NCBI GenBank assembly: GCA_016432485.1
Contig: CP066691.1
Location: forward strand, 281,762-345,761
Direction of reading: 5' to 3'
Length of the DNA stretch: 64,000 bases
Source: Candidatus Niyogibacteria bacterium
GTDB taxonomy: Bacteria > Patescibacteriota > Minisyncoccia > HO2-45-28
Positions 5,834 to 42,375 of the stretch are shown here, piece after piece. The stretch's first letter is position 1, and the number at the start of each line of letters is the position of its first letter. The translations under genes and the position numbers were made by a program. Below the pieces are notes generated by a model that was given only the letters and a program-made list of their open reading frames with translations, was not told where the DNA came from and searched no databases.

Positions 5834-7853
5834 TTGCTTTCTCCTCTCCTTCCTTTAAAAATTCGGCGATATTTTTATAGAGATCGGGTCCGGCCGTAAA
5901 AAAACGCTCAACCCCCGATTTCTTCAATAGGTCCGCTTCGGTTCGGCGAATAATTCCCCCGCCGATAACTTTGGCTCTTTCATGTCCGACAATCCGCAAA
6001 TTTTGAATAAGGTCTTCAAAAAGTACGACCGGCGAACCTATATGAGTGGATACCGCGACAACATCAACGTTTTCCTGCAAAGCCACCCTTGCCAAATTCA
6101 AAGTTGAAAGATGTAGTCCGGGATAAATAACTTCCGCGCCCAGATTTTTTAAAAACGGAGCAATAAGATAGATCGGCCTGTCATGACCATCAAGTCCTCC
6201 CTTGGCCAATAAAACCCTCAACGGTTTTTTCAAACGATAAATTCTGACGAGATCGGCTGAATTTTTGTCCGGCTCTGCCGGCACGTAAAGTCCTTTATCC
6301 TCATACGCGCCCCAAACCTGTTTCATGGCTGAAACAATTTCACCAAGAGTCGCTCCGCTTGTCGCCGCGCGAATTAAAAACGGCATTATGTTTTCTTCGG
6401 TTTCGGCAACACGGCGAATATCGTCCAGGGCGGAGCGCGCTTCTGAAATTTTGCTGAATGCCGATCTTTCGCGCTTAAAAGCCGCGAGACTTTCAAGCTG
6501 TCTTTCTTCAAAACCCCGCCTGGTTTCAAGCTCGCGGGCAACGCTTTCCGGCTCATCCAATTCTTCTTGCAGGCAATATTTTGTGACTCCGACAATCTGC
6601 ATCGCGCCCGAACGCAAACCCCGATCATATTCTCGCGCTGATTCCTGCACAACCCTTTGAGGGTATCCGGCTTTGACCGCCTCAATCATTCCGCCGATTT
6701 GCTCTATTCTCTGAATTTCGGCAAGAGCTTCTTCAAAAATTCTTTGAGTACTTTCCTCTATAAAATACGAGCCGCCCAGGGCGTCGACAACGGCGCAAAT
6801 TCCGGTTTCTTCCTGCAAAATCTGCTGAGTGCGGGCCGCGACTCTGGCTGCTCCTTCGGTCGGCGTGCACATCACCTCGTCATACGAATTAGTGTGCATA
6901 CTTTGGGCTCCGCCTAAAGCTCCGGCCAGAGCCTGAATGGCAACGCGCACGATGTTATTCAGCGACTCCTCTCGGGTCAAAGTGCAGCCGGCAGTCTGAA
7001 CATGCATCCGGCACCACTCGGAACGGTAATTTTTAGCGCCAAACCAATGCCGCATAATATGCGCCCATAATTTGCGCGCCGCGCGCAGTTTCGCTATTTC
7101 TTCCAGAAAGTCATTATGGATATCAAAAAAGAAAGAAAGCCGGGGCGCGAAATCATCAATTTTCAAACCGCGTTTTACGGCCTCGCGCGCGTAGGCAACG
7201 CCGTCGGCCAAAGTAAAAGCCAGTTCCTGAACCGCCGTGGCTCCGGCTTCTCGGATATGGTAACCGCTGATTGATATGGGATTCCATCTCGGCATATATT
7301 TGGCCGCGAACTCAATCGTATCCGTAACCAATCTCATGCTCGGTCCTTCAGGAAAAATCCATTCCCGCTGAGCTATAAATTCTTTCAATATGTCGTTTTG
7401 GATCGTCCCGCCTAATTTTTCAACGGCGATTCCTCTTTTTTGAGCCATAGCGATATACATAGCCCAGATTATTGCCGCGGGCCCGCTGATAGTCATTGAA
7501 ACCGTAAGCTGGTCTATGGCAATGCCGTTAAAAAGCTCTTCCATATCGCGGATAGTGTCTACAGCGACGCCATCCCAGCCCACTTCTCCCCGGCAGATCG
7601 GGTCATCCGAATCAAATCCCATAAGCGTAGGCAGGTCAAACGGCGTTGAAAGTCCGGTAGTCCCGGCGCCTAAAAGCATTTTCCAGCGGGCATTAGTATC
7701 AAAAGCCAAGCCGTGTCCGGCAAATTGCCTGATGGTCCACTTTTTATCTCGGTACATTCCGGGATGAATCCCTCGGGTATATGGAAATTCTCCAGCCGGC
7801 GCCGGCTCATGAAGAGCCGCGAAACCTTCAGCCAGTTCGTCCGCTAATCGCAC
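5823..7853 (-). CDS. methylmalonyl-CoA mutase-like, fused substrate-binding barrel plus C-terminal B12-binding domain (MutB-like)
   Basis: Conserved MCM N-terminal motifs (FAGHGLAFDTNARWKMLLGAGTTGLS). C-terminal cobalamin-binding DxHxxG signature (GLDGHDRP) and a Rossmann-like B12 domain. Confidence 0.8.
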   Translation of the reverse strand: MRLADELAEGFAALHEPAPAGEFPYTRGIHPGMYRDKKWTIRQFAGHGLAFDTNARWKMLLGAGTTGLSTPFDLPTLMGFDSDDPICRGEVGWDGVAVDTIRDMEELFNGIAIDQLTVSMTISGPAAIIWAMYIAMAQKRGIAVEKLGGTIQNDILKEFIAQREWIFPEGPSMRLVTDTIEFAAKYMPRWNPISISGYHIREAGATAVQELAFTLADGVAYAREAVKRGLKIDDFAPRLSFFFDIHNDFLEEIAKLRAARKLWAHIMRHWFGAKNYRSEWCRMHVQTAGCTLTREESLNNIVRVAIQALAGALGGAQSMHTNSYDEVMCTPTEGAARVAARTQQILQEETGICAVVDALGGSYFIEESTQRIFEEALAEIQRIEQIGGMIEAVKAGYPQRVVQESAREYDRGLRSGAMQIVGVTKYCLQEELDEPESVARELETRRGFEERQLESLAAFKRERSAFSKISEARSALDDIRRVAETEENIMPFLIRAATSGATLGEIVSAMKQVWGAYEDKGLYVPAEPDKNSADLVRIYRLKKPLRVLLAKGGLDGHDRPIYLIAPFLKNLGAEVIYPGLHLSTLNLARVALQENVDVVAVSTHIGSPVVLFEDLIQNLRIVGHERAKVIGGGIIRRTEADLLKKSGVERFFTAGPDLYKNIAEFLKEGEEKANER

Positions 7854-29387: not shown

Positions 29388-30089
29388 TTATTTTATTCTT
29401 ATTTTTTTCTCGTTTCGTCCGGCGTAATAATCGCACTTTTTGCACTCCAAATCGTCTCCCGGGTAAGGTTTTTCAAGAAAATCAACCATTTCTTTGAGTT
29501 TCTTTTCAAAATTTTTGGCGTCAATTTTCACTTCGTCCACATGACTCGCGAATTTCACTTCTGTTGACGGGTCGTTTTTGTCTTTGACGAAATAGTGCAG
29601 CAAAAAGGCGCGGTCTGACGGCTTATATCCGTTTTTCAAAAACATATAGCCATAGGCGGCAAGTTGGTCGCGGTAATATTTCTGCTTGTCTTCAGCCGGC
29701 GCGTTGCCGGATGATTTGTAATCGGCCGGAATAAAGCGGCCGTCCGATTCCACAAAAACATCGTCAATTTTTCCGACAAGTTCGTAACCCGAATTTTCAT
29801 TTACCACTTTAAGCGCGCTGGAATTGGTCCGCCACTCGTTGAGAAGTTCCAGATCGTCAAAAGTCCTTATGCCCATTTTCTCAAGCTCCTTGGATTCCGG
29901 CGGAAATTTTTTGTCGGCGCGGTATTTGTCGTATCTGGTCTTTAAAATGCTGTCCATCGCCGTATTTAAAGCCAACGGCAGCATCGGCGGTTTTCTATGA
30001 TGATTCTCAAGCCAAAAACAGGCCTTGCATTCCGTATAAGAATAAAGCCCGCTCGGGCTCAACTTCCATAATCCATTTTTTGTTTTCAT
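29388..30089 (-). CDS. PD-(D/E)xK nuclease, Cas4/RecB-like, with four Cys
   Basis: IDD...ADYK nuclease motif. N-terminal CKAC and C-terminal CKKC pairs, consistent with Cas4-type Fe-S ligation. Confidence 0.55.
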   Translation of the reverse strand: MKTKNGLWKLSPSGLYSYTECKACFWLENHHRKPPMLPLALNTAMDSILKTRYDKYRADKKFPPESKELEKMGIRTFDDLELLNEWRTNSSALKVVNENSGYELVGKIDDVFVESDGRFIPADYKSSGNAPAEDKQKYYRDQLAAYGYMFLKNGYKPSDRAFLLHYFVKDKNDPSTEVKFASHVDEVKIDAKNFEKKLKEMVDFLEKPYPGDDLECKKCDYYAGRNEKKIRIK

Positions 30090-30271
30090 GATTTTGGTTT
30101 TTTGTTCTTTTTTAAGTGTTTAAAAATCTCAATTTGACGAAGGCGCCTTTCGGCTTCTTTTTTTGTGTTATATCTTCCAAAAACTCTGCCTGTTTTTTCC
30201 GACGTCACCACATACTGTCCCTTGACTTTTTTAATCACGTACCTATAATAACACCGGACGTTGTTAAGCAT
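30086..30271 (-). CDS. small basic protein, hypothetical
   Basis: 61 aa, Lys/Arg-rich; overlaps the upstream nuclease gene by 4 nt. Confidence 0.35.
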   Translation of the reverse strand: MLNNVRCYYRYVIKKVKGQYVVTSEKTGRVFGRYNTKKEAERRLRQIEIFKHLKKNKKPKS

Positions 30272-30556
30272 AAGGGGGATGCCGTGAAAATTCTACGCGC
30301 TCTTCTTAAGGCGCTAAATCCTCTCATCTGGCTTATTAATCTGTTTATGTACTTTGCGCATCTTGAGGGTCAGAGATCTTGTAAAGAATATCATCCTTAT
30401 GATTTTTTCTGGGATCTAAAATATTTTTAAGGCCGAACCGCCCAACCCTCTTGGGCGGTTTCAATTGTTGCAAAGCATTTAATTATTCATATAATGTATA
30501 GAGAAGTTCCCTTTAAATTCATTCCGCAGTAGCTCAATGGTAGAGCAGCTCCCTGT

Positions 30557-31128
30557 GAATAAAATAGTTCGTTTTTTGTGGTATACTTAAATGTGTATGC
30601 CAAAAGAAAAACGAACATACGCCGACCGCCGAGAGTATTTAAAAATGGCAGTGACCAAAAGACGACGAAGATTAAAAACACTGCTTGTAGAATATAAAGG
30701 CGGGAAATGCACGGTCTGCAGTTATAATAAAACCCCGTGGGCAATGGATCTTCATCATGTTGATGAATCCAAGAAATCATTTGATATGTCCTCACGCGGA
30801 CTTACCCGCTCATGGGAACGTCTTAAAAAAGAGGCAGATAAGTGTGTGTTGCTTTGTGCAAATTGTCACAGAGAAATACACGCCGGCGTAACGCAGCTTC
30901 CTAAAGTAATTTAGGTTGAAAAATCTCGGGATAACGGTGAAGCCCTAAATCTTTTGCATTAGATTGGGTAATACCGTGGGAACCTTTGCTTGTTCGGGGT
31001 TTACTCCGAGCGAAGTCGAGGAGCGCCGTAGAGACTAGATACCGAGATCCCGCCATTCATTTGAAATATTATTTAATGGAGGGGGGGAAAGATATAGTCC
31101 AACCCTAAAAGTAATTTTAGGACCGTTG
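30557..31128 (+). mobile_element. group I intron (about 572 nt) with an embedded HNH homing-endonuclease ORF
   Basis: Lies between tRNA halves. Exon 1 ends in T and the intron ends in G (accgttG). P7-like pairing GAGACTAGA / GATATAGTCC, with the latter close to the Tetrahymena AGATATAGTCGG segment. P9-like hairpin CCTAAAAgtaaTTTTAGG just before the 3' splice site. Confidence 0.6.
30591..30914 (+). CDS. HNH homing endonuclease (intron-encoded)
   Basis: CTVCS...DLHHVD...CANCHREIH HNH/zinc-finger motif; 107 aa, basic. Confidence 0.75.
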   Translation: MCMPKEKRTYADRREYLKMAVTKRRRRLKTLLVEYKGGKCTVCSYNKTPWAMDLHHVDESKKSFDMSSRGLTRSWERLKKEADKCVLLCANCHREIHAGVTQLPKVI

Positions 31129-31234
31129 TAAGGAGTTGGTTGTAGGTTCGAATCCTACCTGCGGAGCCAATAAACTAGATACGAACTCATTTTTTGAAGA
31201 TTAGACCTCTATCAGAGGTCGTATCCAGCGCGGT

Positions 31235-31270
31235 TGACAATCGCTTGACAATTGAATATAGATTGCTTGG
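31235..31270 (+). promoter_or_regulatory. candidate promoter for the SNF2 operon
   Basis: Two TTGACA hexamers (GCGGTTGACAATCGCTTGACAATTGAATATAGAT); the first is 17 nt from TATAGA. Confidence 0.3.
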
Positions 31271-31292
31271 GTTTTGTGCCGCAAAACGCCCC

Positions 31293-31331
31293 GCCCCCGC
31301 CTCCGGCATATGCCGGAGGCGGGGGGTTTTA
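31293..31331 (+). terminator. intrinsic terminator downstream of the tRNA
   Basis: CCCCGCCTCCGGCATATGCCGGAGGCGGGGGG followed by TTTT. Confidence 0.7.
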
Positions 31332-31464
31332 GGTTGAAATCAGGCCAAAAATGTGGGAAAGTAAGGGGGATATGAAGAATCTCATGGAAAAATTGAAAAA
31401 GGTGCTTATCAAAGAGATGTTTACACATTCGGTGTTCCGCTTGATGATTTAATCAAGTAGAAAT

Positions 31465-34398
31465 ATGTCGGTTTTTCTTAAAAAATATTTGGCTGAAAAA
31501 GTAGCTCTTCAAAAAATGGCCGGCTCTTTGAACCGCCTATCTTCTGTCTTGGCAAAATCAACGATTGACCTCAACCCGTATCAAATTCATGCGGCTCTTT
31601 ACGCATTTAACAGTCCGCTTTCTCGTGGCGCAATTTTGGCCGATGAAGTCGGCTTGGGTAAGACGATTGAAGCCGGCATTATCATATCCCAACTTTGGGC
31701 CGAAGGGAAGAGAAAGATATTAATTCTTGCCCCGGCCTCGTTAAGAAAACAGTGGCAAGATGAGTTGCTTTCAAAATTTGGAATTGAATCAGAAGTTTGG
31801 GACGGCCCCTCTTTTAGGGCGCAAACAGACATGGGAGAAAAGACACCCCTAACTTACAGTGGCGTTTTTATAATTTCTTACCATTTTGCTTACAGCCACC
31901 TTGAATTGATAAGGAAGCAAGGTTGGGCTGTTGTTGTAATAGATGAAGCCCATCGTTTTAGGCGTGTGTTCAAGGGAAGAGATGCCTCAAAAATGGCATA
32001 CGACATTCGGGAAATAATAAAAGATAAACCAAAGGTTTTGCTGACGGCAACACCCCTGCAAAACAGCCTTGAGGAATTATACGGGATAGCAAGTTTTATA
32101 GACGACAAGCTTCTCGGATCATCCTATAGTTTCAAAACGAAGTTCATACAGCCGATAAAGGACCAGTCGGGGTTAGCTAAATTGAGATTGGAGGAATTGA
32201 GGGCATTGATACGCGGGGAAGAAGGCGACGACCCGTCGTCAATCTCCGGAGTAATTACACGGACTTTGAGAAAACAAGTTTTGGAGTATGTGCAATTTAC
32301 CGACAGGACATCAATGACTTTTGACTTTACTCCCACCGAGGAAGAAGTTGAATTGTACGAGAAAGTTTCCGCATACCTCCAGCGTCCTAATGTGGCGGCC
32401 ATTACCGCGACGCAGAGAAATTTGATGATTCTCGTTTACAGAAAATTATTGGCCAGTTCGTCGTTCGCCATAGCCGACACCCTGAAGAAGTTAAGTGAGA
32501 ATCTAAAAAACGAATTGAAGTTGCGAAATAAAGAAGCAGTGGCCGAGGAGTTGAATCCGGAGTCAACGGCAGATGAGGGCCTTTTGGAAGAATTTGAAGA
32601 ATCAGAATTGGAGGGAGTAGAACAAGGTCAGAAGAAAGAAAAGCAACGCGTTGACGATACTTTTAGCGATGACGACATAAAAAAGGAAATAGAGGAGTTG
32701 GAAGGATATTATTCATTGGCAGTCAAAATTAAAGAAAACACAAAGGGTAAAGCGTTGATTAACGCCTTGTCGCAACTTTTCAAACAGGCCAGAGAAAAGA
32801 AGTGGCCTGAAAAAGCTGTGGTGTTCACAGAGTCAACGCGCACTCAGGACTATCTTTTAAAACTTCTCAAAGAAGCCGGAATTTCTTTTACGGAATTCAA
32901 CGGGTCAAATAACTCGCCCGAAGCACGAGAGGCATTCAATCGTTGGAAAAAGGAGTTTCCAGAAGCGGCATCTGTTGGTTCAGCATCTGCCAACACGCGC
33001 CAAGCTCTTATTCATGACTTCAGAACAAATACACAAGTCTTGCTTACCACAGAAGCGGGGGCGGAAGGATTAAACCTCCAGTTTGCAAATATTGTCATCA
33101 ATTATGATTTGCCGTGGAATCCTCAAAGAGTGGAACAGAGAATCGGCCGTTGCCACCGCTACGGCCAAAAGCACCAAGTGGTAGTTGCGAATTTTCTTAA
33201 TACAAAAAATTACGCCGATAAGCGAGTACTGGAATTGTTGAGCGAGAAACTAAATTTATTTAACGGACTTTTTGGAAGTTCCGATGAGATTCTTGGCGCT
33301 TTGGAATCCGGTCTTGATTTTGAAAAGAAGATACTTGAAATTTATCAAAACAGCAGAAGCCCTGAAGAATACGACAAAGCGTTTACAGAACTACAGGAAA
33401 GCTTGAAAGATGTTATCTCAAAAACAACCTTGCAATATAGAAACTTGTTATTGGAAAGCGCGGATCAAGCTGTTGCCGCATTATTCAAAAAAACGGAAGC
33501 GGAAACTAAAAAAGCGATTTCAGATTTTGACAGGGATTTGCTTTTTCTCTGCAAGCTCACGCTGGAAGAAAAGATAAAACCAACCGAGGATGAGGCGATT
33601 TTTGTGATAGATGGTTATAAATTTCCGATTGCTTTTCGAGAGCTTCGCGATGATGAAGAAGGTAAAATTTCCCGCGCGCACAAAGACCATCCAGTCATCA
33701 GTAAAATTATTGAAGATAATTTGAAACTGCAAACTAAGCCGATACCTTCTTTGATTTTTGAGCTTTCAAAACACGGCGGTAAAATATCCCAGTTGAGCGA
33801 CGCTAAAGTAAAAGAAGGATTTATATTTCTTTGGAAGTTAAAGATAGCCGGAGTCGAGACGGAAGAAATTTTAGTGCCGCTCGTTTTTCTCGAAAAAACA
33901 GAAGGCGAATTCAGCGCATTGGATGTGGCAATTGCCAATGAATTCATTGATGTGGAAAGTGTTGATTCTGAAAAAACACTTGAGAGTTCGCCTATTAAAA
34001 AAGAGTTTTTGCTTCAAACTTGGGAAAAATGGAAAAAGCCAGTTGTAGAAAGGTATCAGAAAAGAAATGAGCGTCTTTTTGACAGGGAGACGAACAGGAT
34101 AAACCGATATTACGACGACTACGCGCTTCGTGTTGAAGATAGGATGAAAAAGTCGGAAAATGAACAAAAGGATGTAAATCGTAGGAGAGATAATTCCTCC
34201 GACTTGGAAGAAAGGCGGAAGTTGCTCAAGCGAATTCAAGACATCAATATTGCTTTGGACAAGCTAAGAATCCAGCAGTTGAAGTTGAGACAAGAAGGTG
34301 CGAAATTGCGAGAAAAAGAACTGGACAATCTTTGGAAAACTCTGGAGCCGAAAATTTCCGAAGAAATGATTGCGATAACGCATTTCACCATTCAATAA
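31465..34398 (+). CDS. SNF2-family DNA-dependent ATPase/translocase with a roughly 350-aa C-terminal domain of unknown function
   Basis: Motif I DEVGLGKT, Ia PASLRKQWQDE, II DEAH, III TATPLQNSLEELY, helicase-C motifs (TEAGAEGLNLQ, QRIGRCHRYGQ). Acidic insert between lobes; coiled-coil C-terminus. Confidence 0.85.
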   Translation: MSVFLKKYLAEKVALQKMAGSLNRLSSVLAKSTIDLNPYQIHAALYAFNSPLSRGAILADEVGLGKTIEAGIIISQLWAEGKRKILILAPASLRKQWQDELLSKFGIESEVWDGPSFRAQTDMGEKTPLTYSGVFIISYHFAYSHLELIRKQGWAVVVIDEAHRFRRVFKGRDASKMAYDIREIIKDKPKVLLTATPLQNSLEELYGIASFIDDKLLGSSYSFKTKFIQPIKDQSGLAKLRLEELRALIRGEEGDDPSSISGVITRTLRKQVLEYVQFTDRTSMTFDFTPTEEEVELYEKVSAYLQRPNVAAITATQRNLMILVYRKLLASSSFAIADTLKKLSENLKNELKLRNKEAVAEELNPESTADEGLLEEFEESELEGVEQGQKKEKQRVDDTFSDDDIKKEIEELEGYYSLAVKIKENTKGKALINALSQLFKQAREKKWPEKAVVFTESTRTQDYLLKLLKEAGISFTEFNGSNNSPEAREAFNRWKKEFPEAASVGSASANTRQALIHDFRTNTQVLLTTEAGAEGLNLQFANIVINYDLPWNPQRVEQRIGRCHRYGQKHQVVVANFLNTKNYADKRVLELLSEKLNLFNGLFGSSDEILGALESGLDFEKKILEIYQNSRSPEEYDKAFTELQESLKDVISKTTLQYRNLLLESADQAVAALFKKTEAETKKAISDFDRDLLFLCKLTLEEKIKPTEDEAIFVIDGYKFPIAFRELRDDEEGKISRAHKDHPVISKIIEDNLKLQTKPIPSLIFELSKHGGKISQLSDAKVKEGFIFLWKLKIAGVETEEILVPLVFLEKTEGEFSALDVAIANEFIDVESVDSEKTLESSPIKKEFLLQTWEKWKKPVVERYQKRNERLFDRETNRINRYYDDYALRVEDRMKKSENEQKDVNRRRDNSSDLEERRKLLKRIQDINIALDKLRIQQLKLRQEGAKLREKELDNLWKTLEPKISEEMIAITHFTIQ

Positions 34399-34399
34399 T

Positions 34400-35374
34400 A
34401 TGTCAACGGAAATTAAACAAAAAAAACAGGACTTGGGAATTTTTTACACCGACCAGAGAATCGTGAGTTTTATATATGATATTCTTTCTGTCTGGAAAGC
34501 AAAAGAGGACGAGGATTTAAAGCGTTGGGAGAGTCGAAAACCTCATGCTCACTATCCGTCAGTTATTGATCCGGCTTGCGGCGAGGGAATCTTCTTAAAG
34601 AAAGCAGTGGAGTCCGGTTTTACCGGATACAATCCTACACATAAAGTGCCATATATTTTCGGTATTGATATAGATGAATCGGTTGTTGATAAATGGGAAT
34701 CTGTTGAGCTTCTAAATTTTTTCCACGAAGACAGAAGGGCAATGAAAAATCACTTTTATGGCCAAAACGGATTGCTTAATCTGCCGAATAGAAAATTGCC
34801 TTACAAAAAAATGGAAGACGGACTTGTACAATTTGATGCGGTTGTTGGTAATCCGCCGTATGGAGGCATCGGTCTTAAAGAAGAAGAAATGAGGGGCAAA
34901 TTGGCGGCATCCCTTTTGGAGTACGAGATATGGAAATACGCTTTTGATATACAAATAAGCAAGCAGGGAAATATGTTTGGATCCATGGCCTCTCAAAAGG
35001 ACATTGTAAATAGATTGAGAAATATGCCCATCGAAATTTTATTTCTAGAGAGATTTATACAACTTGCAAAGCCGGGCGGTTGGATAGCTATCATTATTCC
35101 AGACGGCATTTTAACCAATTCAAATTCTCACTATGTACGCGAATTTGTTAGCGAGAAAGCAAGAGTGGAAGCAATTGTTTCTTTGCCGCGAGACGCTTTC
35201 AAAAATGTTGGCACAACAGCCAAAACCAGCATTTTATTTTTACAAAAATATAAAGACCAAGGGAAAGAGCGAGATTTAAACTATCCGGTTTTTCTCGCTT
35301 CAGTCGAATCTCTTGAAGAAAAATATTTTAAAATTATAAAAGATGCTTACCAAAAGCATTATACAAAAATATGA
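34400..35374 (+). CDS. gamma-class N6-adenine DNA methyltransferase (HsdM/Eco57I-like catalytic module without TRD)
   Basis: Motif I DPACGEGIFL and motif IV VVGNPPYGG; the start is 2 nt after the SNF2 stop. Confidence 0.8.
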   Translation: MSTEIKQKKQDLGIFYTDQRIVSFIYDILSVWKAKEDEDLKRWESRKPHAHYPSVIDPACGEGIFLKKAVESGFTGYNPTHKVPYIFGIDIDESVVDKWESVELLNFFHEDRRAMKNHFYGQNGLLNLPNRKLPYKKMEDGLVQFDAVVGNPPYGGIGLKEEEMRGKLAASLLEYEIWKYAFDIQISKQGNMFGSMASQKDIVNRLRNMPIEILFLERFIQLAKPGGWIAIIIPDGILTNSNSHYVREFVSEKARVEAIVSLPRDAFKNVGTTAKTSILFLQKYKDQGKERDLNYPVFLASVESLEEKYFKIIKDAYQKHYTKI

Positions 35375-36198
35375 GCAAGAAAAATTTAGTTCAAATAACA
35401 ACAGATGAAAAAGGTCGGGAAATCGTAATGGTACGAGTGGATAAAACCCTGAAAGAAATGATGGAAGAAAAACCATCAAGTAGATGGAATGCTGCTTACT
35501 GGCATCCAACCTATGTTAAAAATTCAGAAGAAATAGCAGCAAGTAATTTTTCTGTAATTAAAATAGGCGACGCGGAAGAAAGATTGACTTATGGCGCAAT
35601 CGTTACTGGCGGGAAAAATTATGAGGGGAAGGGAGTATTTTTAGTCAATCAGGGAGATATCCAATTTACCGGATTAGATAATACGAATTTGAAAGAAGTT
35701 AAAAAAGCTTCTCCTTGGAATATTGAACGCGCAAAGGTTAAACTTAATTCTTTGATTTTAGCTCGATCTGGAGTTGGAGGAGTTGGTAAAAATCGAATTA
35801 CTATTATAACCAAGCCAATGAATGCGGTGGTAGATAGTTTTGTTGATGTTTTAGACCTAGACGATAAAAAAATTAATCCTGTTTATGTACTTGTCTTTTG
35901 GAAAACTATGTTTGGGAAATTACAAATTGAAAGAATAATAAATGGCGTTGGAACTGTAAATATTAGTTTTGATGAAATTAGAGAAATGAAAATACTTGAT
36001 ATTTCGGAAGGTGTTCAAGGCAATATTGAATCCGAATATAAAAAAATATCTGTCTTTCACGACAAGGCAATGGAAGCAAAGAAAAAGGGCAAGGATGTGG
36101 AATACAAAGCTAACATGGAAACCGCCGAGAGAATGCTGAAAGATTTAATCGCTAAAACCGAAGCCGTTATTCGCGGCGAGAAAAAAGATGTAATTTAA
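35371..36198 (+). CDS. HsdS-like DNA specificity protein with a single target-recognition domain
   Basis: TRD-like pattern (LTYGAIVTGG..., LILARSGVGGVGKNRITI, INGVGTVNISFDEIREMKILDISE) plus a helical conserved region. Overlaps the MTase stop by 4 nt. Confidence 0.7.
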   Translation: MSKKNLVQITTDEKGREIVMVRVDKTLKEMMEEKPSSRWNAAYWHPTYVKNSEEIAASNFSVIKIGDAEERLTYGAIVTGGKNYEGKGVFLVNQGDIQFTGLDNTNLKEVKKASPWNIERAKVKLNSLILARSGVGGVGKNRITIITKPMNAVVDSFVDVLDLDDKKINPVYVLVFWKTMFGKLQIERIINGVGTVNISFDEIREMKILDISEGVQGNIESEYKKISVFHDKAMEAKKKGKDVEYKANMETAERMLKDLIAKTEAVIRGEKKDVI

Positions 36199-36203
36199 TT
36201 TTT

Positions 36204-37997
36204 ATGCCAGAACAAAGGTCGGAAAATTCTTATATCGTAAACGACATCTTACCGTTTCTGGCAAGCAATTTTGGCTACCCGATTCATGACGCGGAGCGAG
36301 TAAAAATAAACGATGTTCCGATTTTTCGGCCAAGCGGCGGCAGAAGTGGGTCCACAATTGATATTGTCTACTATCATAACGGGGAGCCAGTTCTTCTCAT
36401 TGAAGCAAAAACTAAACATAAAACTCATGAGTCCGCATTGATAGAAGCAAAGAATTATCTAAAAAACTTTCCCATAGACAAACCGGAGTTTGCTCCGTCT
36501 GGCTTGCCCCCAAAAATTTTGGCAACAACAGTCGGTAAAAACATTAAATTTTACAAATGGAGCATAGATTATTCAAAACCAATTCCGGATTTTATAACCG
36601 AAGAAATTGAGGTTTTATCATTTGAGAAGTTGCTTTCCTACTACGGATTAATTAAAGAATATAAGGCGCGCATTTTAGAGCCCAAAAACTTTGCCACGGA
36701 TTTTTTTGACGAACTAATTTCTATTTTCAAATTTCATAAAAAAGAGAAAAAAATAACAAAGGATGTTGTCAAAGAAGTTGTTTATCAAATTCACAATTAT
36801 TTGCTGAATCCAAAAAAATACACCGGCGATTATCCTTACACCGAATTGGACTTACAAGGACAAAAAGCCGTTCGCGATCTGTTTAAGCGATTTGATTTTG
36901 TCGCTTCGCTTGGCCCGGAAATAGCCAAAGAATTTCGCAAGTCGATTTTGAGATCTTTTCAAGGCGAAGAATTCAATCAGTACCTTACCGAAAAATGCGT
37001 TATAGATTTTGTTTTCGGTCTGATTGGCAAATTGAACAAACACACGAAAGTTTTGGATTTCGAGTGTGGTAGTGGAGGATTTTTGGCGACGGCAGTCAAT
37101 CAGAACAATTTGGATTTGGAAAATGTGATGGGGATTGATATTGAGGACTTGCCTTATATCATCGCCAAAACTTACTTTGCTCTGTACTTCGGAAAAACCG
37201 GTGAGGGGTTGAATCTTGTCCCAATAAAGAAAGATAACGGCTTGTTTTATCACGGCAAGAATTGGGATTTAGTTGTGGGCAATCCCGCCGGAAGCAGTAA
37301 ATACGAACATGGCGATGAAGATAAAATTTTTGAGAATCTAAATAGTGATTTAAATAACGACGACAAAAAAGATAAAATTTCGGAGTACAATTTGTCAATT
37401 CAGCAAGCGATTCAATCCGCTCGCGTTGGCGGCAAGATTTGTTTGATACTGCCTGAAGGAGTGTTTTCAAATTCTCAAGACGAGTTTTTAAGAAAATATA
37501 TCGCCAAATATTGCAATATATTGGCAATCGTGAGCTTGCCACCGGGGTCGTTCAGAAGAGGAACAACAGTAAGCCAGTTAAGGAGAGGCGCACAATCTGC
37601 TTCAATGAAAATGTCTATTGTGTACGCGGAAAAAACCAGAGAGGTCAGGAAAAAAGAAGGATTGGAAGTTGATTTGAGGCATTTGGACTACCCGATATTT
37701 TTAGCGCACATTGATAAGGTTGATTCCGGATCAGGCGAAATCAGTGAATGGCTGGAGGAAAGATTAAACGTTGTGTTGGAGCAATGGAAAGAGTGGCAGA
37801 ATAAAGCTGAATTGAATGATATTGAAAAAATAACCACAAAGCTTGATAAAGAAGAAAAGATAAAAGAAAATCAAAAAACTTTGTTTAGCAAGGTCGAGCT
37901 CGACAAGACAAACATAGAAAAAAGTAAAAAGATAAAACCAAAAGAGGGTAAGTCAGAAACAAAGATAAGCAAAAACTTGGAAGATTTATTAAGTTAA
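36204..37997 (+). CDS. HsdR_N-type PD-(D/E)xK nuclease fused to a paralogous N6-MTase-like domain with a degenerate motif IV (NPAG) and a Lys-rich coiled-coil tail
   Basis: N-terminus GSTIDIVYYHNGEPVLLIEAKTK (D...ExK). MTase-like domain has motif I LDFECGSGGFLATAV but VVGNPAGSS in place of NPPY. Collinear similarity to the 34400-35374 protein (MGIDIE vs FGIDID, GGKICLILPEGV vs GGWIAIIIPDGI, AIVSLPP vs AIVSLPR). Confidence 0.7.
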   Translation: MPEQRSENSYIVNDILPFLASNFGYPIHDAERVKINDVPIFRPSGGRSGSTIDIVYYHNGEPVLLIEAKTKHKTHESALIEAKNYLKNFPIDKPEFAPSGLPPKILATTVGKNIKFYKWSIDYSKPIPDFITEEIEVLSFEKLLSYYGLIKEYKARILEPKNFATDFFDELISIFKFHKKEKKITKDVVKEVVYQIHNYLLNPKKYTGDYPYTELDLQGQKAVRDLFKRFDFVASLGPEIAKEFRKSILRSFQGEEFNQYLTEKCVIDFVFGLIGKLNKHTKVLDFECGSGGFLATAVNQNNLDLENVMGIDIEDLPYIIAKTYFALYFGKTGEGLNLVPIKKDNGLFYHGKNWDLVVGNPAGSSKYEHGDEDKIFENLNSDLNNDDKKDKISEYNLSIQQAIQSARVGGKICLILPEGVFSNSQDEFLRKYIAKYCNILAIVSLPPGSFRRGTTVSQLRRGAQSASMKMSIVYAEKTREVRKKEGLEVDLRHLDYPIFLAHIDKVDSGSGEISEWLEERLNVVLEQWKEWQNKAELNDIEKITTKLDKEEKIKENQKTLFSKVELDKTNIEKSKKIKPKEGKSETKISKNLEDLLS

Positions 37998-38283: not shown

Positions 38284-38568
38284 TCAGCTCGTCTATGGTT
38301 CGATAAACTCACCACAGGTAAACTCTACACCCTCACCCCGGAGGAAATTAAGGTTGTGGAAAATTGATTTGCATTTTCAAAAATTTATGTCCTAACTTTA
38401 AAACCAAGTTGATTTTTTAAATAAAATATGCTAGACTTAAACTAAAGTAGATAAAAAATTGAGAGATTAATAAATCGGGGGTTCGCTAAACATTTTTTGT
38501 GACGCAACCTCATTCATCCCTCCGATTCACGGAAAGATGCTCGTCCGAAAACGGCGGCATCTCAAGAA

Positions 38569-38597
38569 AAACGGACGGGATAGGTCCGTTTTTTTGT
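38569..38597 (+). terminator. intrinsic terminator
   Basis: AACGGAC-gggatag-GTCCGTT followed by TTTTTTG. Confidence 0.65.
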
Positions 38598-38634
38598 TTG
38601 CTGAGTCGAAAAACAGTAATTATTAATTCATTGC

Positions 38635-38919: not shown

Positions 38920-39101
38920 AAATCCTGAAAACCACATGAGTCTTGATCTGCTTAGATAAGCGGAGATGGCGCTTTGCTAATTCAGGGACCCGACACCAAA
39001 CGGCTAAATCGGTGATTTAGCCGTTTGGTTTGCCCTTGATTTTTCCCAAAATTTTTTGTAGGCTTGGAATATCTTTATGGATATCTTTATCTTCTTAAAA
39101 A

Positions 39102-39785
39102 GTGAAAAAAGATCAAAAAATATATATAAAAGAGAACGATGTTAACTTTCGGAAGCCATCCGGTGAACCAGATGGCGTGGAAAAAATGAAAGCGGGACAG
39201 AATCTCGTTTTTGTGGATGGGCCGTGGTTTAGGGCAACAAAAGATGGAAAGATTGGTTGGGTCTATGCTGACTATATATCTGAAACGAATCCGAACCCCG
39301 CACAGCAGCCACAGCAATTGATTTCTTTTGTGGAGGGATGGCCAAACTTATACAACAGCCCTGTTACTGTTGCCGTTCGCGAAATTATTAATAATGAGTT
39401 TGGGCTTGAAGCGGAGAAAATCCCGTTAAATTGTACCGAATACGTCCAGTATTGCATCAAGACAAAACTGGGCATTGTTATCGAGTGGCCATCTGACCGC
39501 CCGCGTCATGGCGGAAAATGGGCAGATATTTTTAGACGAAATAATTTGTACAAGGTTATAAATGAACCAGTTTCAAATTGTGCTGCTTGTTTTACTGATG
39601 TCCGCAAGAAAGACGGAACTTTAACAAAGGAAGGTCACGTTGCATTTGTTGAAGAAATATTTCCTGATGGCTCAATAAAAATTTCAGAGGCAAATTGGCC
39701 CAACAGCGGTATTTATAGTGAGCGTATTTTAAGCAAAGCGGATTGGCAAAATAAATATAGGTGCCGTTTTATTGATTTTTTATGA
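39102..39785 (+). CDS. SH3b plus CHAP-domain peptidoglycan hydrolase (no signal peptide)
   Basis: SH3b-like GQNLVFVDGPWFRATKDGKIGWVYADYI. CHAP Cys (CTEYVQYC) and His (GHVAFVEEI). Confidence 0.65.
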   Translation: MKKDQKIYIKENDVNFRKPSGEPDGVEKMKAGQNLVFVDGPWFRATKDGKIGWVYADYISETNPNPAQQPQQLISFVEGWPNLYNSPVTVAVREIINNEFGLEAEKIPLNCTEYVQYCIKTKLGIVIEWPSDRPRHGGKWADIFRRNNLYKVINEPVSNCAACFTDVRKKDGTLTKEGHVAFVEEIFPDGSIKISEANWPNSGIYSERILSKADWQNKYRCRFIDFL

Positions 39786-40279
39786 CAATACCGGGTCAAC
39801 AAAAAGTACGAAAAATTATTCGTGGGGACGAACAAAATAGGATTACTATTGCGGTGGTATTTTTGGCCACCTATCTAACTATTATTTTTGGGCTGTCTGA
39901 TAAAATCAGGGTATCTATAAATGATATAAACGGGATGAGCATCTTGAATGACTTGGTTTTTGCAATTTTTATAGTTTTCGGCGTCTTAATTTCATCTCTG
40001 TTTTTCTTATATCTAGTTTTCACGGCACTAAGTTTAGATTTTAATAAACAAAAAGAGGTTATTTTTGAGCAAGAGGTGAGTGAGAAAAAATTAGTTAAAG
40101 TAAGAGAAAAACTTTTTAATGCTGGAGTGCGATCTGTTTTCATTTCATTTACGTTCCCGGTTTATTATCTCTTCGTTTTGTTTAGGAAAGGTTACGGAGT
40201 ATGGACCTCCGTATTGCTGTGGGGCTTCAGTCTAGCCTTAATATATATTTTGTTATTTTTAGTTTTTAAAGACGATTAA
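39782..40279 (+). CDS. four-TM membrane protein, hypothetical
   Basis: Overlaps the CHAP gene by 4 nt. Confidence 0.45.
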   Translation: MTIPGQQKVRKIIRGDEQNRITIAVVFLATYLTIIFGLSDKIRVSINDINGMSILNDLVFAIFIVFGVLISSLFFLYLVFTALSLDFNKQKEVIFEQEVSEKKLVKVREKLFNAGVRSVFISFTFPVYYLFVLFRKGYGVWTSVLLWGFSLALIYILLFLVFKDD

Positions 40280-40311
40280 CTGGCCAACAAAAAAATTAGG
40301 AAAATAAATTT

Positions 40312-41136
40312 ATGAACGAATTTGAATATATTAAACAGCATCTGCTCAATAGATTAGAAATTGATCGCGGATACTCTCATGGTGGGGCCCAGCGTATTTT
40401 AAGAGAACAACTAAATGAATGGGAAAAAAGAAAAAATGGCATTAAAGATTTATATGGCTTGTATAGACAATTTCTTATAAGCGCGCAAAATCGGCAGGGC
40501 ATGCCTAACATTATAGGGGGAGAAAAAGGGGTTGATGAAATTTTAGAAAAAGTCATTAAGACACGACGACTTGATAAAATTGTGGAAAACTTTAAATCAC
40601 CGGAAATTCTCTTTGAGAAAATTAAAAAGGTGAGTATAACAAAAAAACATACACTGAAAAGCTCTAAAAATACATGGATTGGTTTTTGTAAATCTGTTAT
40701 ATCCAGCGCGGAGTTTTTAAAGCAGTTTAAAGATTTAAACGATTTTAGAAAGTTTGCGGATTCTTTGTATAAAGTGAGGGGAGCGCGTATGGCTCTGCCT
40801 CTTATCATAAGTGCGGAAGTTAGCGGGATTGGGTTGGCATTGGCTTGTGATATTTTAAAAGAAAGCGGATACCCAGATTATGTTAAACCCGATATTTGGA
40901 TTAAGCGCTTTGCAAAAGCTTTTGAAATTACAAAGTCAAACAGCGACTACAGAATAGCGGAGGATCTCGTGGCTTATAGTAAATCTATTAACGAACTGCC
41001 GTATGTGGTTGATAAGGCGTTCTGGTTAACTGGTAGCGGAGATTTTTATCTTAGTGGAGATAAAATCGAAAGAGTTAAAAAAGAAGATATAGAAAGTTTT
41101 GTTGAAAAATATAAAAAAGAGAAATTAACCCCATGA
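40312..41136 (+). CDS. hypothetical protein with an HhH-GPD-like motif (possible DNA glycosylase fold)
   Basis: LPLIISAEVSGIGLALACDIL followed by VKPDIWIKRF resembles the EndoIII LPGVG...VDTHIFRV arrangement. Confidence 0.35.
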   Translation: MNEFEYIKQHLLNRLEIDRGYSHGGAQRILREQLNEWEKRKNGIKDLYGLYRQFLISAQNRQGMPNIIGGEKGVDEILEKVIKTRRLDKIVENFKSPEILFEKIKKVSITKKHTLKSSKNTWIGFCKSVISSAEFLKQFKDLNDFRKFADSLYKVRGARMALPLIISAEVSGIGLALACDILKESGYPDYVKPDIWIKRFAKAFEITKSNSDYRIAEDLVAYSKSINELPYVVDKAFWLTGSGDFYLSGDKIERVKKEDIESFVEKYKKEKLTP

Positions 41137-41474
41137 CCTCAATTTTAATTTCCATAATTATTTTTCTTGCCGTGGCAGTTTTGGTGCTGGCTGTTTTTGC
41201 GCGTAAAGAAGCGGAAAAACACGGCACGAATACGAAAGATGAATTTGTCGGTATCTGCGCCTCGGCAATTGAGACGGCTTCGGAAAAAGAATCTCGCAAG
41301 CAAAAGGCGCTGGCTATGTTTGAGCGGAAAAAAGAACTCTCCAACGCCGAAATCCGCAAGACGCTCGGCGTATCTAGCCGCACGGCCGTGCGCTATTTAG
41401 ATGAATTGGAAGCGGAGGGCAAAATAGAGCAAGTCGGCAAAATCGGCCACGCCGTCACCTACCGTCTAAAATAA
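41133..41474 (+). CDS. membrane-anchored winged-HTH DNA-binding protein
   Basis: N-terminal TM plus C-terminal LSNAEIRKTLGVSSRTAVRYLDELEAEGKI HTH. Confidence 0.55.
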   Translation: MTSILISIIIFLAVAVLVLAVFARKEAEKHGTNTKDEFVGICASAIETASEKESRKQKALAMFERKKELSNAEIRKTLGVSSRTAVRYLDELEAEGKIEQVGKIGHAVTYRLK

Positions 41475-41475
41475 A

Positions 41476-41513
41476 ACAACATTCCAACATTCTGCAGAAT
41501 GTTGGAATGTTGT
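41476..41513. promoter_or_regulatory. perfect 38-bp palindrome, ArsR operator candidate, copy 1
   Basis: aacaacattccaacattctgcagaatgttggaatgttgtt, checked base by base. Located immediately upstream of the arsR-like gene. Confidence 0.6.
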
Positions 41514-41536: not shown

Positions 41537-41806
41537 ATGGTAAAGACTTCAAGACAACTGGAAAGATATTTTAAGGGCGCGGCCAACCATCGGCGAATTG
41601 ATATCTTGTTTACGGTTGAAAAAAATGACGGGATTACGGTTGAAGAGATTGCGGATGCTCTGGAGGCAAATTTCAAGACCATCTCCCAGCACACACGCTC
41701 GCTGGTCCATGCCGGTCTGTTGAATAAACAATACCGCGGCCGTCGGGTAGCGCACTCACTTTCTCCCTATGGCAAATTTTTCCTTAAGTTCATGAAAACA
41801 TTCTAA
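41537..41806 (+). CDS. ArsR/SmtB-family transcriptional regulator
   Basis: HRRIDILFTV...ITVEEIADALEANFKTISQHTRSLVHAGLL ArsR HTH. The track start at 41507 overlaps the palindrome, so the likely true start is the ATG at 41537 (MVKTSRQL). Confidence 0.7.
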   Translation: MVKTSRQLERYFKGAANHRRIDILFTVEKNDGITVEEIADALEANFKTISQHTRSLVHAGLLNKQYRGRRVAHSLSPYGKFFLKFMKTF

Positions 41807-41830
41807 CATTCTGCAGAATGTTAGAATGTT
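41797..41830. promoter_or_regulatory. perfect 34-bp palindrome, ArsR operator candidate, copy 2, upstream of tspO
   Basis: aaacattctaacattctgcagaatgttagaatgttt; shares its core with copy 1. Confidence 0.6.
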
Positions 41831-41865: not shown

Positions 41866-42375
41866 ATGAAAATCGGTAATATTTTAAAACTCACTATTGC
41901 GATTGCGGTGTCGGAATTGGCCGGTGTGATCGGCTCGTTTTTTACTGTTTCTTCAATTCCAAATTGGTATGCCGGGCTGGTGAAGCCGGCGCTCAATCCT
42001 CCTGCTTGGGTATTTGGACCCGCGTGGACTATGCTTTACGCGTTGATGGGCATTTCGCTTTTTTTGATCTGGAAGATCAACCCTTCCGAAGCTCGCGTCG
42101 GCGAGCGTAGGAGGGCCGTCACATTATTTTTCATCCAGCTTTTCTTAAACGCAATCTGGTCAATTATTTTCTTTGGCCTGCATGGTTCAACATGGCTCAC
42201 CATAAACAATCTCGGCTGGGCATTGGTTGATATCATTCTTCTCTGGCTCGCGATCGTCTGGACAATGGTTGTATTCTACAAAATTTCTCGCCCGGCGGCA
42301 TATCTCCTCGTGCCGTATCTTCTCTGGGTAAGTTTCGCGATGTATTTAAACTACGCGATCTGGGCATTAAATTGA
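41866..42375 (+). CDS. tspO: TspO/MBR tryptophan-rich sensory protein
   Basis: Five TM helices; conserved NPPAWVFGPAWTMLY and W-rich segments. Confidence 0.85.
   Translation: MKIGNILKLTIAIAVSELAGVIGSFFTVSSIPNWYAGLVKPALNPPAWVFGPAWTMLYALMGISLFLIWKINPSEARVGERRRAVTLFFIQLFLNAIWSIIFFGLHGSTWLTINNLGWALVDIILLWLAIVWTMVVFYKISRPAAYLLVPYLLWVSFAMYLNYAIWALN

Follow-up and report, generated by a model that had tools for sequence, protein, structure and literature searches.

The locus considered here, positions 39102 to 41474 of a 64,000-nucleotide stretch of Candidatus Niyogibacteria DNA (contig CP066691.1; the whole stretch is called the window below), raises the question of whether four tightly packed genes constitute one dedicated system or have only come to stand together. 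All four lie on the forward strand and are lettered A to D in this report: namely, gene A (39102–39785; 227 amino acids (aa), GTG start), encoding a signal-less SH3b-CHAP protein that is predicted to be a cysteine amidase/peptidase with C111, H179, and E196/N198; gene B (39782–40279; 165 aa), overlapping A by 4 nucleotides (nt) and encoding a membrane protein with four transmembrane (TM) segments; gene C (40312–41136; 274 aa), beginning after a 32-nt gap and encoding a protein of the HhH-GPD fold that is putatively a monofunctional, Dag-like DNA glycosylase; and gene D (41133–41474; 113 aa), overlapping C by 4 nt and encoding an N-terminal TM anchor followed by a winged helix-turn-helix (HTH). 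Homologues were found for each of A, B, C, and D at E <= 1e-36, and the four are therefore genuine genes and not chance open reading frames (ORFs); the ORFs themselves confirm the co-oriented arrangement with its 4-nt overlaps that an initial annotation of the locus had described. We moderately favour the reading that A–D is a mosaic of genes that move separately and belong to the cargo of a defence island, among them a candidate lysis/abortive effector and a Dag-like glycosylase. The "four-gene operon" would then be a local juxtaposition and not a conserved four-component machine.

Protein A matched the Pfam CHAP model (PF05257) over residues 110–198 at E 2.8e-11 and with 44.2 bits, above the cut-off of 26, and its AlphaFold2 model has a CHAP fold together with an N-terminal beta domain at residues 6–54. 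The SH3_3 score of A was only 15.6 bits, but many of its homologues passed the threshold. C111 (in QCTEY), H179 (in GHVAFVE), and E196/N198 (in SEANWP) were invariant in 40 family sequences, and the closest structures were autolysin-type CHAP domains. The GTG start is backed by a conserved N-terminus, MKKDQKIY, in homologues; the protein has neither a hydrophobic N-terminus nor a TM segment by the Kyte–Doolittle scale, so that the description of A as a CHAP peptidase devoid of a secretion signal proved accurate. Full-length homologues formed more than 120 clusters at 40–66% identity, nearly all of 221–238 aa and of SH3b-CHAP architecture, and an exhaustive profile search of 1.84 billion representatives gave a family core of about 45 clusters at 50% identity. 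As the hydrophobic N-terminus was missing in 116 of 120 members, the family is most likely cytoplasmic. Some relatives are fused to Amidase_3 (P0218) or to PG_binding_1 (P0219), which supports peptidoglycan-type substrates, and one of 355 aa (P0223) has the CHAP domain of this family with a C-terminal TIR domain. One subgroup (260 aa) has an N-terminal CPKC extension with a zinc-ribbon-like motif; also, another subgroup (P0135/P0174; 392–394 aa) has an unannotated N-terminal domain of about 160 aa. From this primary structure and the model, we infer that A belongs to a small and highly conserved cytoplasmic amidase family with an intact active site, a peptidoglycan-hydrolase-like structure, and a predicted amidase activity. 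Two other substrates were considered. A protease degrading HsdR for "restriction alleviation" and an amidase stripping amide-linked hypermodifications from phage DNA are both less parsimonious, because the structural neighbours and the Amidase_3 and PG_binding_1 fusions point to peptidoglycan.

Ten CHAP contexts were sampled, namely nine homologue loci and the window, and CHAP was found inside or beside immune genes in seven of them. Four of the ten have CHAP directly upstream of hsdS in a Type I restriction-modification (R-M) operon: the order was hsdM-CHAP-hsdS(-x-hsdR), with neighbouring genes either overlapping by 4 nt or separated by 2–11 nt, in L161, L168, and L176/L177, and CHAP-hsdS-DUF4145-DUF3800-hsdR in L169, where the contig begins at CHAP and only the hsdS side is seen. 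Three more have CHAP beside other defence genes; these are a Type II R-M locus (L162) in which genes for a methylase of the EcoRI type and for a GmrSD_N/HNH protein (PADLOC REase_II, 9e-78) precede CHAP and a DUF433/DUF5615 pair, a locus (L180, 3096–5717) with a full-length ThsB (PADLOC, 6e-117), a 325-aa protein, and CHAP, and the window cluster itself. The copies embedded in R-M operons share 51–78% mutual identity and hence do not represent one recent lineage. Furthermore, other genes embedded in the CHAP-bearing R-M operons match the defence candidates PDC-S05 and PD-T7-4. As a control, the 114 genes located 3' of C-family genes were scanned, and Methylase_S did not recur there. No earlier report was returned by literature searches for CHAP together with hsdM/hsdS, in defence islands, or in embedded systems, and the recurrence of CHAP inside R-M operons, beside ThsB, and in a TIR fusion seems not to have been described. 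In L180, we also noticed that the unannotated 325-aa protein between ThsB and CHAP has a C-terminal Cys-rich motif; the stretch of this locus that was examined holds no canonical ThsA, and L180 may represent a form of Thoeris that uses another effector.

These contexts lead us to a bolder proposal, which we put forward only tentatively: the SH3b-CHAP family of about 227 aa might be an unrecognised class of immune effector, i.e., an endolysin-type peptidoglycan amidase domesticated by the cell and wired to sensor modules such as Type I R-M complexes, Thoeris-type TIR proteins, or fused TIR domains. On infection, the cell would turn the enzyme against its own wall or wall precursors, and abortive infection would come about by self-lysis; the CHAP gene of Niyogibacteria, beside a Dag-like glycosylase gene, would be one part of a layered defence island.

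Does gene B tell us how such an enzyme would be used? Kyte–Doolittle analysis gave B four TM segments, as had been annotated, and no family match was obtained in Pfam, NCBIfam, PADLOC, or PHROGs. Its family is very small, with 7 other 90%-identity clusters at 48–56% identity, and the two readable contexts of its homologues hold unrelated membrane proteins and a DNA-methyltransferase fragment but no CHAP. The CHAP homologue of the closest subclade (62% identity) has no B-like ORF downstream, and the TM proteins found 3' of CHAP in L178 and L180 are small and unrelated. B is a lineage-specific membrane protein. The initial annotation had nonetheless recognised in A–B a pairing typical of phage lysis cassettes and of toxin/immunity pairs. 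The former would make A the canonical signal-less endolysin and B the holin of a degraded, cryptic prophage; indeed, A–B in the window resembles a holin–endolysin cassette, in that the gene for a cytoplasmic enzyme of muralytic type overlaps the next gene, whose predicted product is a small membrane protein with several TM segments. A–B differs from such a cassette in lying outside any phage, in having a partner that other loci lack, and in the absence of the CHAP family from the viral contigs searched. Two signature motifs of the CHAP family had no match in 2.9 million IMG/VR viral contigs, and tblastn of A against 50,697 phage records gave only four weak partial matches to the CHAP domain, none of them full-length; a plasmid collection likewise gave no full-length match but only the CHAP-domain part. 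Neither A nor B matched a PHROG, and scans of the window found no phage structural, terminase, or integrase gene adjoining the cluster. As A has no full-length relatives in the phage, plasmid, and viral collections searched, the endolysin/prophage reading is rejected, and we regard it as highly improbable. Very unlikely, too, is the toxin/immunity pair or episymbiont weapon, in which A would be exported non-classically against the wall of a competitor or host and B would protect the producer: none of those sampled among the 7 homologue clusters of B lies beside CHAP, and the CHAP homologues sampled occur without B. Both the toxin/immunity and the holin-partner readings were therefore discarded as general explanations, the A–B pairing being conserved in no sampled context.

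We then turn to protein C, which contains LPLIISAEVSGIGLAL...PDIWIKRF. Nothing in Pfam, NCBIfam, PADLOC, or PHROGs was matched by this protein, with PF00730 and PF22175 giving no match at E <= 1, and its sequence had no match among the chains of the PDB. The AlphaFold2 model built with 42 homologues (predicted local distance difference test, pLDDT, 93.9; predicted template modelling score, pTM, 0.88), however, has the two-domain all-helical fold of the HhH-GPD proteins, with Ogg, EndoIII, and AlkA as the closest structures, and the earlier guess of an HhH-GPD protein was thus correct. PF22175 (Ogg-HhH) was matched by 12 of the 42 relatives, with a best E of 1.7e-5; C of the window is not among them. 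In the alignment of 42 sequences, we found an invariant block, ALPL...G.G.ALACD..K......KPD, comprising L162, P163, G172, A176–D180, K183, K192, and D194, and a near-invariant Y.VDK.FWL.GSG. The HhH hairpin G172-I-G174 and the Asp about 20 residues on (D194) are invariant in all 42. In a weak hhalign register with EndoIII (E 0.11), not significant by itself and to be read as a lead only, G172-I-G174 falls on G116-V-G118, D194 on the catalytic D138, VDKAFWL on VDCHHWL, and the invariant A176 on the lyase K120. Given an Ala at the position of K120, C is predicted to be monofunctional, or else the nucleophile is supplied elsewhere (the invariant K183 and K192). C also has a D234-x3-W238 motif, which we take to be reminiscent of the guanine-binding Asp and Trp in AGOG. 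Taken together, C is probably a standalone and monofunctional DNA glycosylase, as judged from its fold and conserved residues.

The C family is rare, its distribution is wide but patchy, and it has spread horizontally. Relatives of C numbered 259 among 185,579 species genomes of bacteria and archaea, and they occur in Chloroflexi, Bathyarchaeia, Methanobacteria, Gammaproteobacteria, Flavobacteriia, Bacilli, and bacteria of the candidate phyla radiation (CPR); metagenome contigs held more than 432 and viral contigs only 3. When 2,060 neighbours were clustered, no conserved partner emerged, the largest cluster being present in 6 of 160 loci, and Pfam matches among the adjoining genes, 113 on the 5' side and 114 on the 3' side, likewise revealed no obligate partner. 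The immediate neighbours are mixed, namely Mrr, MmeI, IS91/Y2 transposases, resolvases, integrases, WYL/HTH proteins, and Macro domains. Photobacterium angustum ATCC 25915 provides a mobile setting (L021, 3980–5004): the homologue of C is located between two 119-nt repeats that are 82% identical, lie 906 bp apart, and have the ends TAACAA...GGGCGTTA. We assume these repeats to be attC sites similar to the Vibrio cholerae repeat (VCR), in the geometry of a Vibrio-type integron cassette. Proteins of V. parahaemolyticus, V. vulnificus, and V. jasicida belong to the same 90%-identity cluster as this homologue. Upstream in the same locus (790–2997), a long array of 66-nt tandem repeats was noticed within two ORFs.

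The closest relative of C (85% identity; L170–L172) has a 54-aa ORF and a gene for a 163-aa PIN protein directly upstream, where A–B stand in the window; this ORF and the PIN gene look like a VapBC-type pair. Also, five loci in metagenome-assembled genomes of Bacilli (L045, L047, L055, and related ones; around 6694–7204) have a gene for a Macro-domain protein of about 165 aa located about 25–40 nt 3' of the C homologue, and an ADP-ribosylglycohydrolase is encoded beside the homologue in one other locus. The Macro-domain and glycohydrolase genes hint that the C family is linked to ADP-ribose chemistry in some lineages.

Protein D, as annotated initially, appears to be a membrane-anchored HTH protein: HTH_11 was matched at 8.3e-8, along with other winged-HTH models, and a TM segment spans residues 4–22. 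A homologue with 65% identity is encoded directly 3' of the C homologue in one contig of the closest C relative (L171), but D is missing from two other contigs carrying the identical relative of C. The C–D pairing is therefore the only conserved one among A–D, and it is shallow; D is a predicted membrane-tethered winged-HTH regulator with a loose link to C.

Could the four genes nonetheless work as one dedicated system, in which C senses or attacks foreign modified DNA, D regulates, and A and B execute lysis for abortive infection? The tight packing (the two 4-nt overlaps and the 32-nt gap) would be expected of such a system, and the genes occupy the same low-GC (guanine plus cytosine) island beside defence genes. 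Furthermore, secondary structures bracket exactly A–D. A hairpin on the forward strand at 38995–39029, with a 16-bp perfect stem and a U-rich tract (folding free energy −28.4 kcal/mol, z −4.62), lies 5' of A and is probably the terminator of the upstream unit and the 5' boundary of A–D, and a 38-nt perfect palindrome (41476–41513; z −6.2), directly after the stop codon of D, is possibly a bidirectional terminator and/or an operator and would mark the 3' boundary. The hairpin and the palindrome are consistent with one transcription unit, and the four genes are probably co-transcribed as a compact unit, to judge from their layout. However, homologues of A, B, D, or other proteins of the island were found in none of the 160 C-family loci (BLASTP against the ORFs of each locus), and homologues of B, C, or D in none of the nine other CHAP contexts. 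The homologues of B sit elsewhere, the PIN pair replaces A–B in the closest relative of C, and the GC content of D (0.42–0.45) is core-like, unlike that of A–C. We thus consider a single dedicated system quite unlikely. As the pairings A–B, B–C, and A–C were not found in any related locus examined and the C–D pairing is shallow, the four genes appear to be separately mobile. The proposal that a glycosylase is tied to a lysis/abortive module accordingly survives in part: the context gives the locus an abortive or defence flavour, but the combination is not conserved as one four-gene system.

A more ordinary explanation is housekeeping, in which A would be an amidase for wall remodelling or recycling of murein peptides and C a glycosylase of ordinary base excision repair, both simply lying next to a defence hotspot. 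This would agree with the autolysin-type CHAP domains as the closest structures of A and the fusions to Amidase_3 and PG_binding_1, with the proximity of CHAP to TspO in three loci and to MurG in L165, and with the repair enzymes Ogg, EndoIII, and AlkA as the closest structures of C. Both families are, however, rare (about 45 core clusters for CHAP, and 259 of 185,579 species genomes for C), and in four Type I R-M operons CHAP directly precedes hsdS, with a CHAP-TIR fusion in addition. Wall remodelling would also require export, while the CHAP family has no signal peptides, and the surroundings of C are mobile and changeable, an integron cassette being one of them. Housekeeping is, therefore, a rather unlikely account of A and C.

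Returning to the mosaic of defence cargo, the biochemical activities and the defence function that we infer for A–D from these gene structures, folds, catalytic residues, and genomic associations would be as follows. A would be an endolysin-like effector that is harmless while it stays in the cytoplasm; it might reach the wall through a membrane lesion made by a B-like protein or by a phage holin, or might attack murein precursors in the cytoplasm, and would then contribute to abortive infection or premature lysis. In the window, access for A would possibly be provided by B, and elsewhere A-type proteins may be controlled by an R-M complex or a TIR module. C would excise a modified base, probably derived from a purine, from invading DNA in the manner of the Dag glycosylases.

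Several observations weigh against this mosaic of defence cargo. Three of the ten CHAP contexts, namely L165 (with a Y1 transposase and MurG), L178, and L185, have no recognisable defence gene, and several contexts come from one sequencing project (SRR2238xxxx); with only ten contexts, several of them of this origin, the association between CHAP and defence is not yet statistically robust. CHAP of the window is itself outside the R-M-like operon, about 1.1 kb downstream and behind the strong hairpin. TspO/MBR genes were found about 0.4–2.1 kb from CHAP in three otherwise different loci (the window, 41866–42375; L178, 2712–3107; L180, 6127–6225), and CHAP is thus possibly a conserved anchor beside a variable hotspot and not cargo; the proximity would fit a hotspot that is orthologous among related CPR genomes and in which the neighbours of CHAP are swapped. 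The literature searched contains no precedent for a peptidoglycan hydrolase as a defence effector, and no model in PADLOC or PHROGs matches A, B, or C. As to the glycosylase, a profile of C searched against the PDB gave only sub-threshold matches to AGOG, with the D-x3-W motif aligning with that of Pab-AGOG at E 0.44, and the hhalign comparison with E. coli EndoIII is of use for motif register only. Twelve accessions of the C family, moreover, were not found in the supplement on the Dag proteins, as far as its locus tags and accession lists, which come without sequences, allow a comparison.

How the four genes came to the locus is suggested by their surroundings. The GC content is 0.33–0.40 over about 33–41 kb and 0.44–0.48 in the flanks; locally at C, it is 0.33–0.37 compared with about 0.45. 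A defence cluster is located upstream, about 1.1 kb 5' of A and 2.3 kb 5' of C. Given the low GC content and the defence genes directly upstream, A–D would stand last in a defence island acquired by horizontal transfer; direct repeats serving as flanking att sites were searched for around it, and none was convincing. This upstream cluster, on the forward strand, encodes a DrmD-like SNF2 helicase (31465–34398; PADLOC DrmD, 2.4e-184; Pfam SNF2-rel_dom), an N6-methyltransferase of 324 aa (34400–35374), an S-like specificity protein of 275 aa (35371–36198; PADLOC Specificity_I), and a 597-aa protein with both HSDR_N and N6_Mtase domains by Pfam (36204–37997). PADLOC matches in the cluster also included MTase_I/II. 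DrmA, DrmB, and DrmC are missing from this set; it is neither classical DISARM nor Type I and may be an undescribed helicase-methylase system.

Some further features of the island and its edges were noticed. Between the upstream cluster and A, the intergenic stretch 38398–38605 has a promoter-like site (38398–38427), some 150 nt that fold well (z −3.5), and a terminator-like hairpin with a T-run (38573–38600); no Rfam match was obtained for this stretch, and it may be a small RNA or a leader. On the other side, a second, near-identical copy of the palindrome (34 nt, 41797–41830; also perfect) shares the core AACATTCTGCAGAATGTT with the copy at 41476–41513. The two are the only copies in the window and bracket a gene of the ArsR/SmtB family, for which they may be operators and/or bidirectional terminators; as the listed ATG at 41507 is inside the first palindrome, this gene probably starts at a downstream ATG (MVKTSRQ...). 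Just upstream of the defence island, a group I intron was detected at 30815–31166 (Rfam RF00028, 57.3 bits, E 1.6e-13), abutted by a weak match to the 3' half of a tRNA (31122–31166, 19 bits). ARAGORN found no tRNA in the whole window, and the intron and the tRNA half are probably an intron-split tRNA gene that was missed by this program. Also, all long ORFs are on the reverse strand before 30.1 kb and on the forward strand after 31.4 kb, and the cumulative GC skew has its minimum at about 30000–31400; this region beside the island may be a replication origin or a major strand-switch point.

The tight translational coupling of genes in a compact CPR genome is not to be taken as evidence for a functional four-gene system. 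If confirmed, CHAP proteins beside hsdS and ThsB and fused to TIR would bring a new effector chemistry, self-lysis or destruction of wall precursors, into prokaryotic immunity, and the CHAP-hsd operons would offer a concrete and clonable test case for "guilt-by-embedding". The C family, for its part, would represent an unannotated HhH-GPD glycosylase of bacteria, archaea, and Vibrio integrons; should it be of the Dag type, defence by glycosylases would extend to CPR bacteria and archaea, with a new specificity to be sought.

It remains to compare these proteins with the systems already described. Dag1 and Dag2, together with 17 further HhH glycosylases, protect against phages with 7-deazaguanine in their DNA, and the Dag proteins are HhH glycosylases from Vibrio integrons that carry no annotation by sequence (Getz et al. 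2025, preprint, doi 10.1101/2025.10.29.685425). C resembles them in being encoded by a single gene, in having the HhH fold without sequence annotation, in its patchy occurrence across phyla, in its AT-rich setting of mobile elements and defence islands, and in having members in integron cassettes of Vibrionaceae. Furthermore, the spacing of D234 and W238 in C equals that of the essential D184/W188 pair of Dag1 (doi 10.1101/2025.10.29.685425). Dag1, however, has a catalytic Lys (K118) and appears to be bifunctional; in the C family, the position of K120 in EndoIII is taken by an invariant Ala. By analogy, the C family is probably a new member of the defence glycosylases that is Dag-like by its profile, and no named Dag family is assigned to it. 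Compared with the repair enzymes of the Ogg2, AGOG, and EndoIII types (Tm1821 of Thermotoga, 3n0u; Pab-AGOG, 7olb; Nth of E. coli), C shows only 8–16% identity, matches no PF00730, and lacks the lyase Lys and the motif for the Fe-S cluster; it also carries about 45 additional helical residues at its N-terminus and is a rare accessory protein, in contrast to these near-universal housekeeping enzymes.

Protein A shares with known CHAP hydrolases (SAOUHSC_02979, 5t1q; PcsB; those of the LysK/LysGH15 type) the CHAP fold, the Cys-His-Glu/Asn site, and a putative domain of the cell-wall-binding SH3b type, and the family also resembles the staphylococcal and phage CHAP hydrolases in having relatives fused to Amidase_3 or PG_binding_1. 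It differs from the latter in the N-terminal position of SH3b, the fixed unit of about 227 aa, and the lack of a signal peptide; unlike them, furthermore, the family is found in R-M and defence loci, not in lysis or autolysin loci, and has no members in the viral collections searched. Defence functions are over-represented among genes that lie inside Type I R-M, BREX, and DISARM loci (doi 10.1101/2024.01.29.577857; PMC11411939), as exemplified by PrrC in EcoprrI (PMC12707154), TgvAB in the VPI-2 island of V. cholerae, and the "guilt-by-embedding" candidates (Payne et al. 2024). While an effector of the peptidoglycan-amidase type has no precedent among the embedded systems in the literature searched, and CHAP of the window differs from embedded genes in that it adjoins an R-M-like operon instead of lying inside one, four of the CHAP homologues are like the defence genes embedded in R-M loci in being located directly upstream of hsdS and tightly coupled to the flanking hsd genes.

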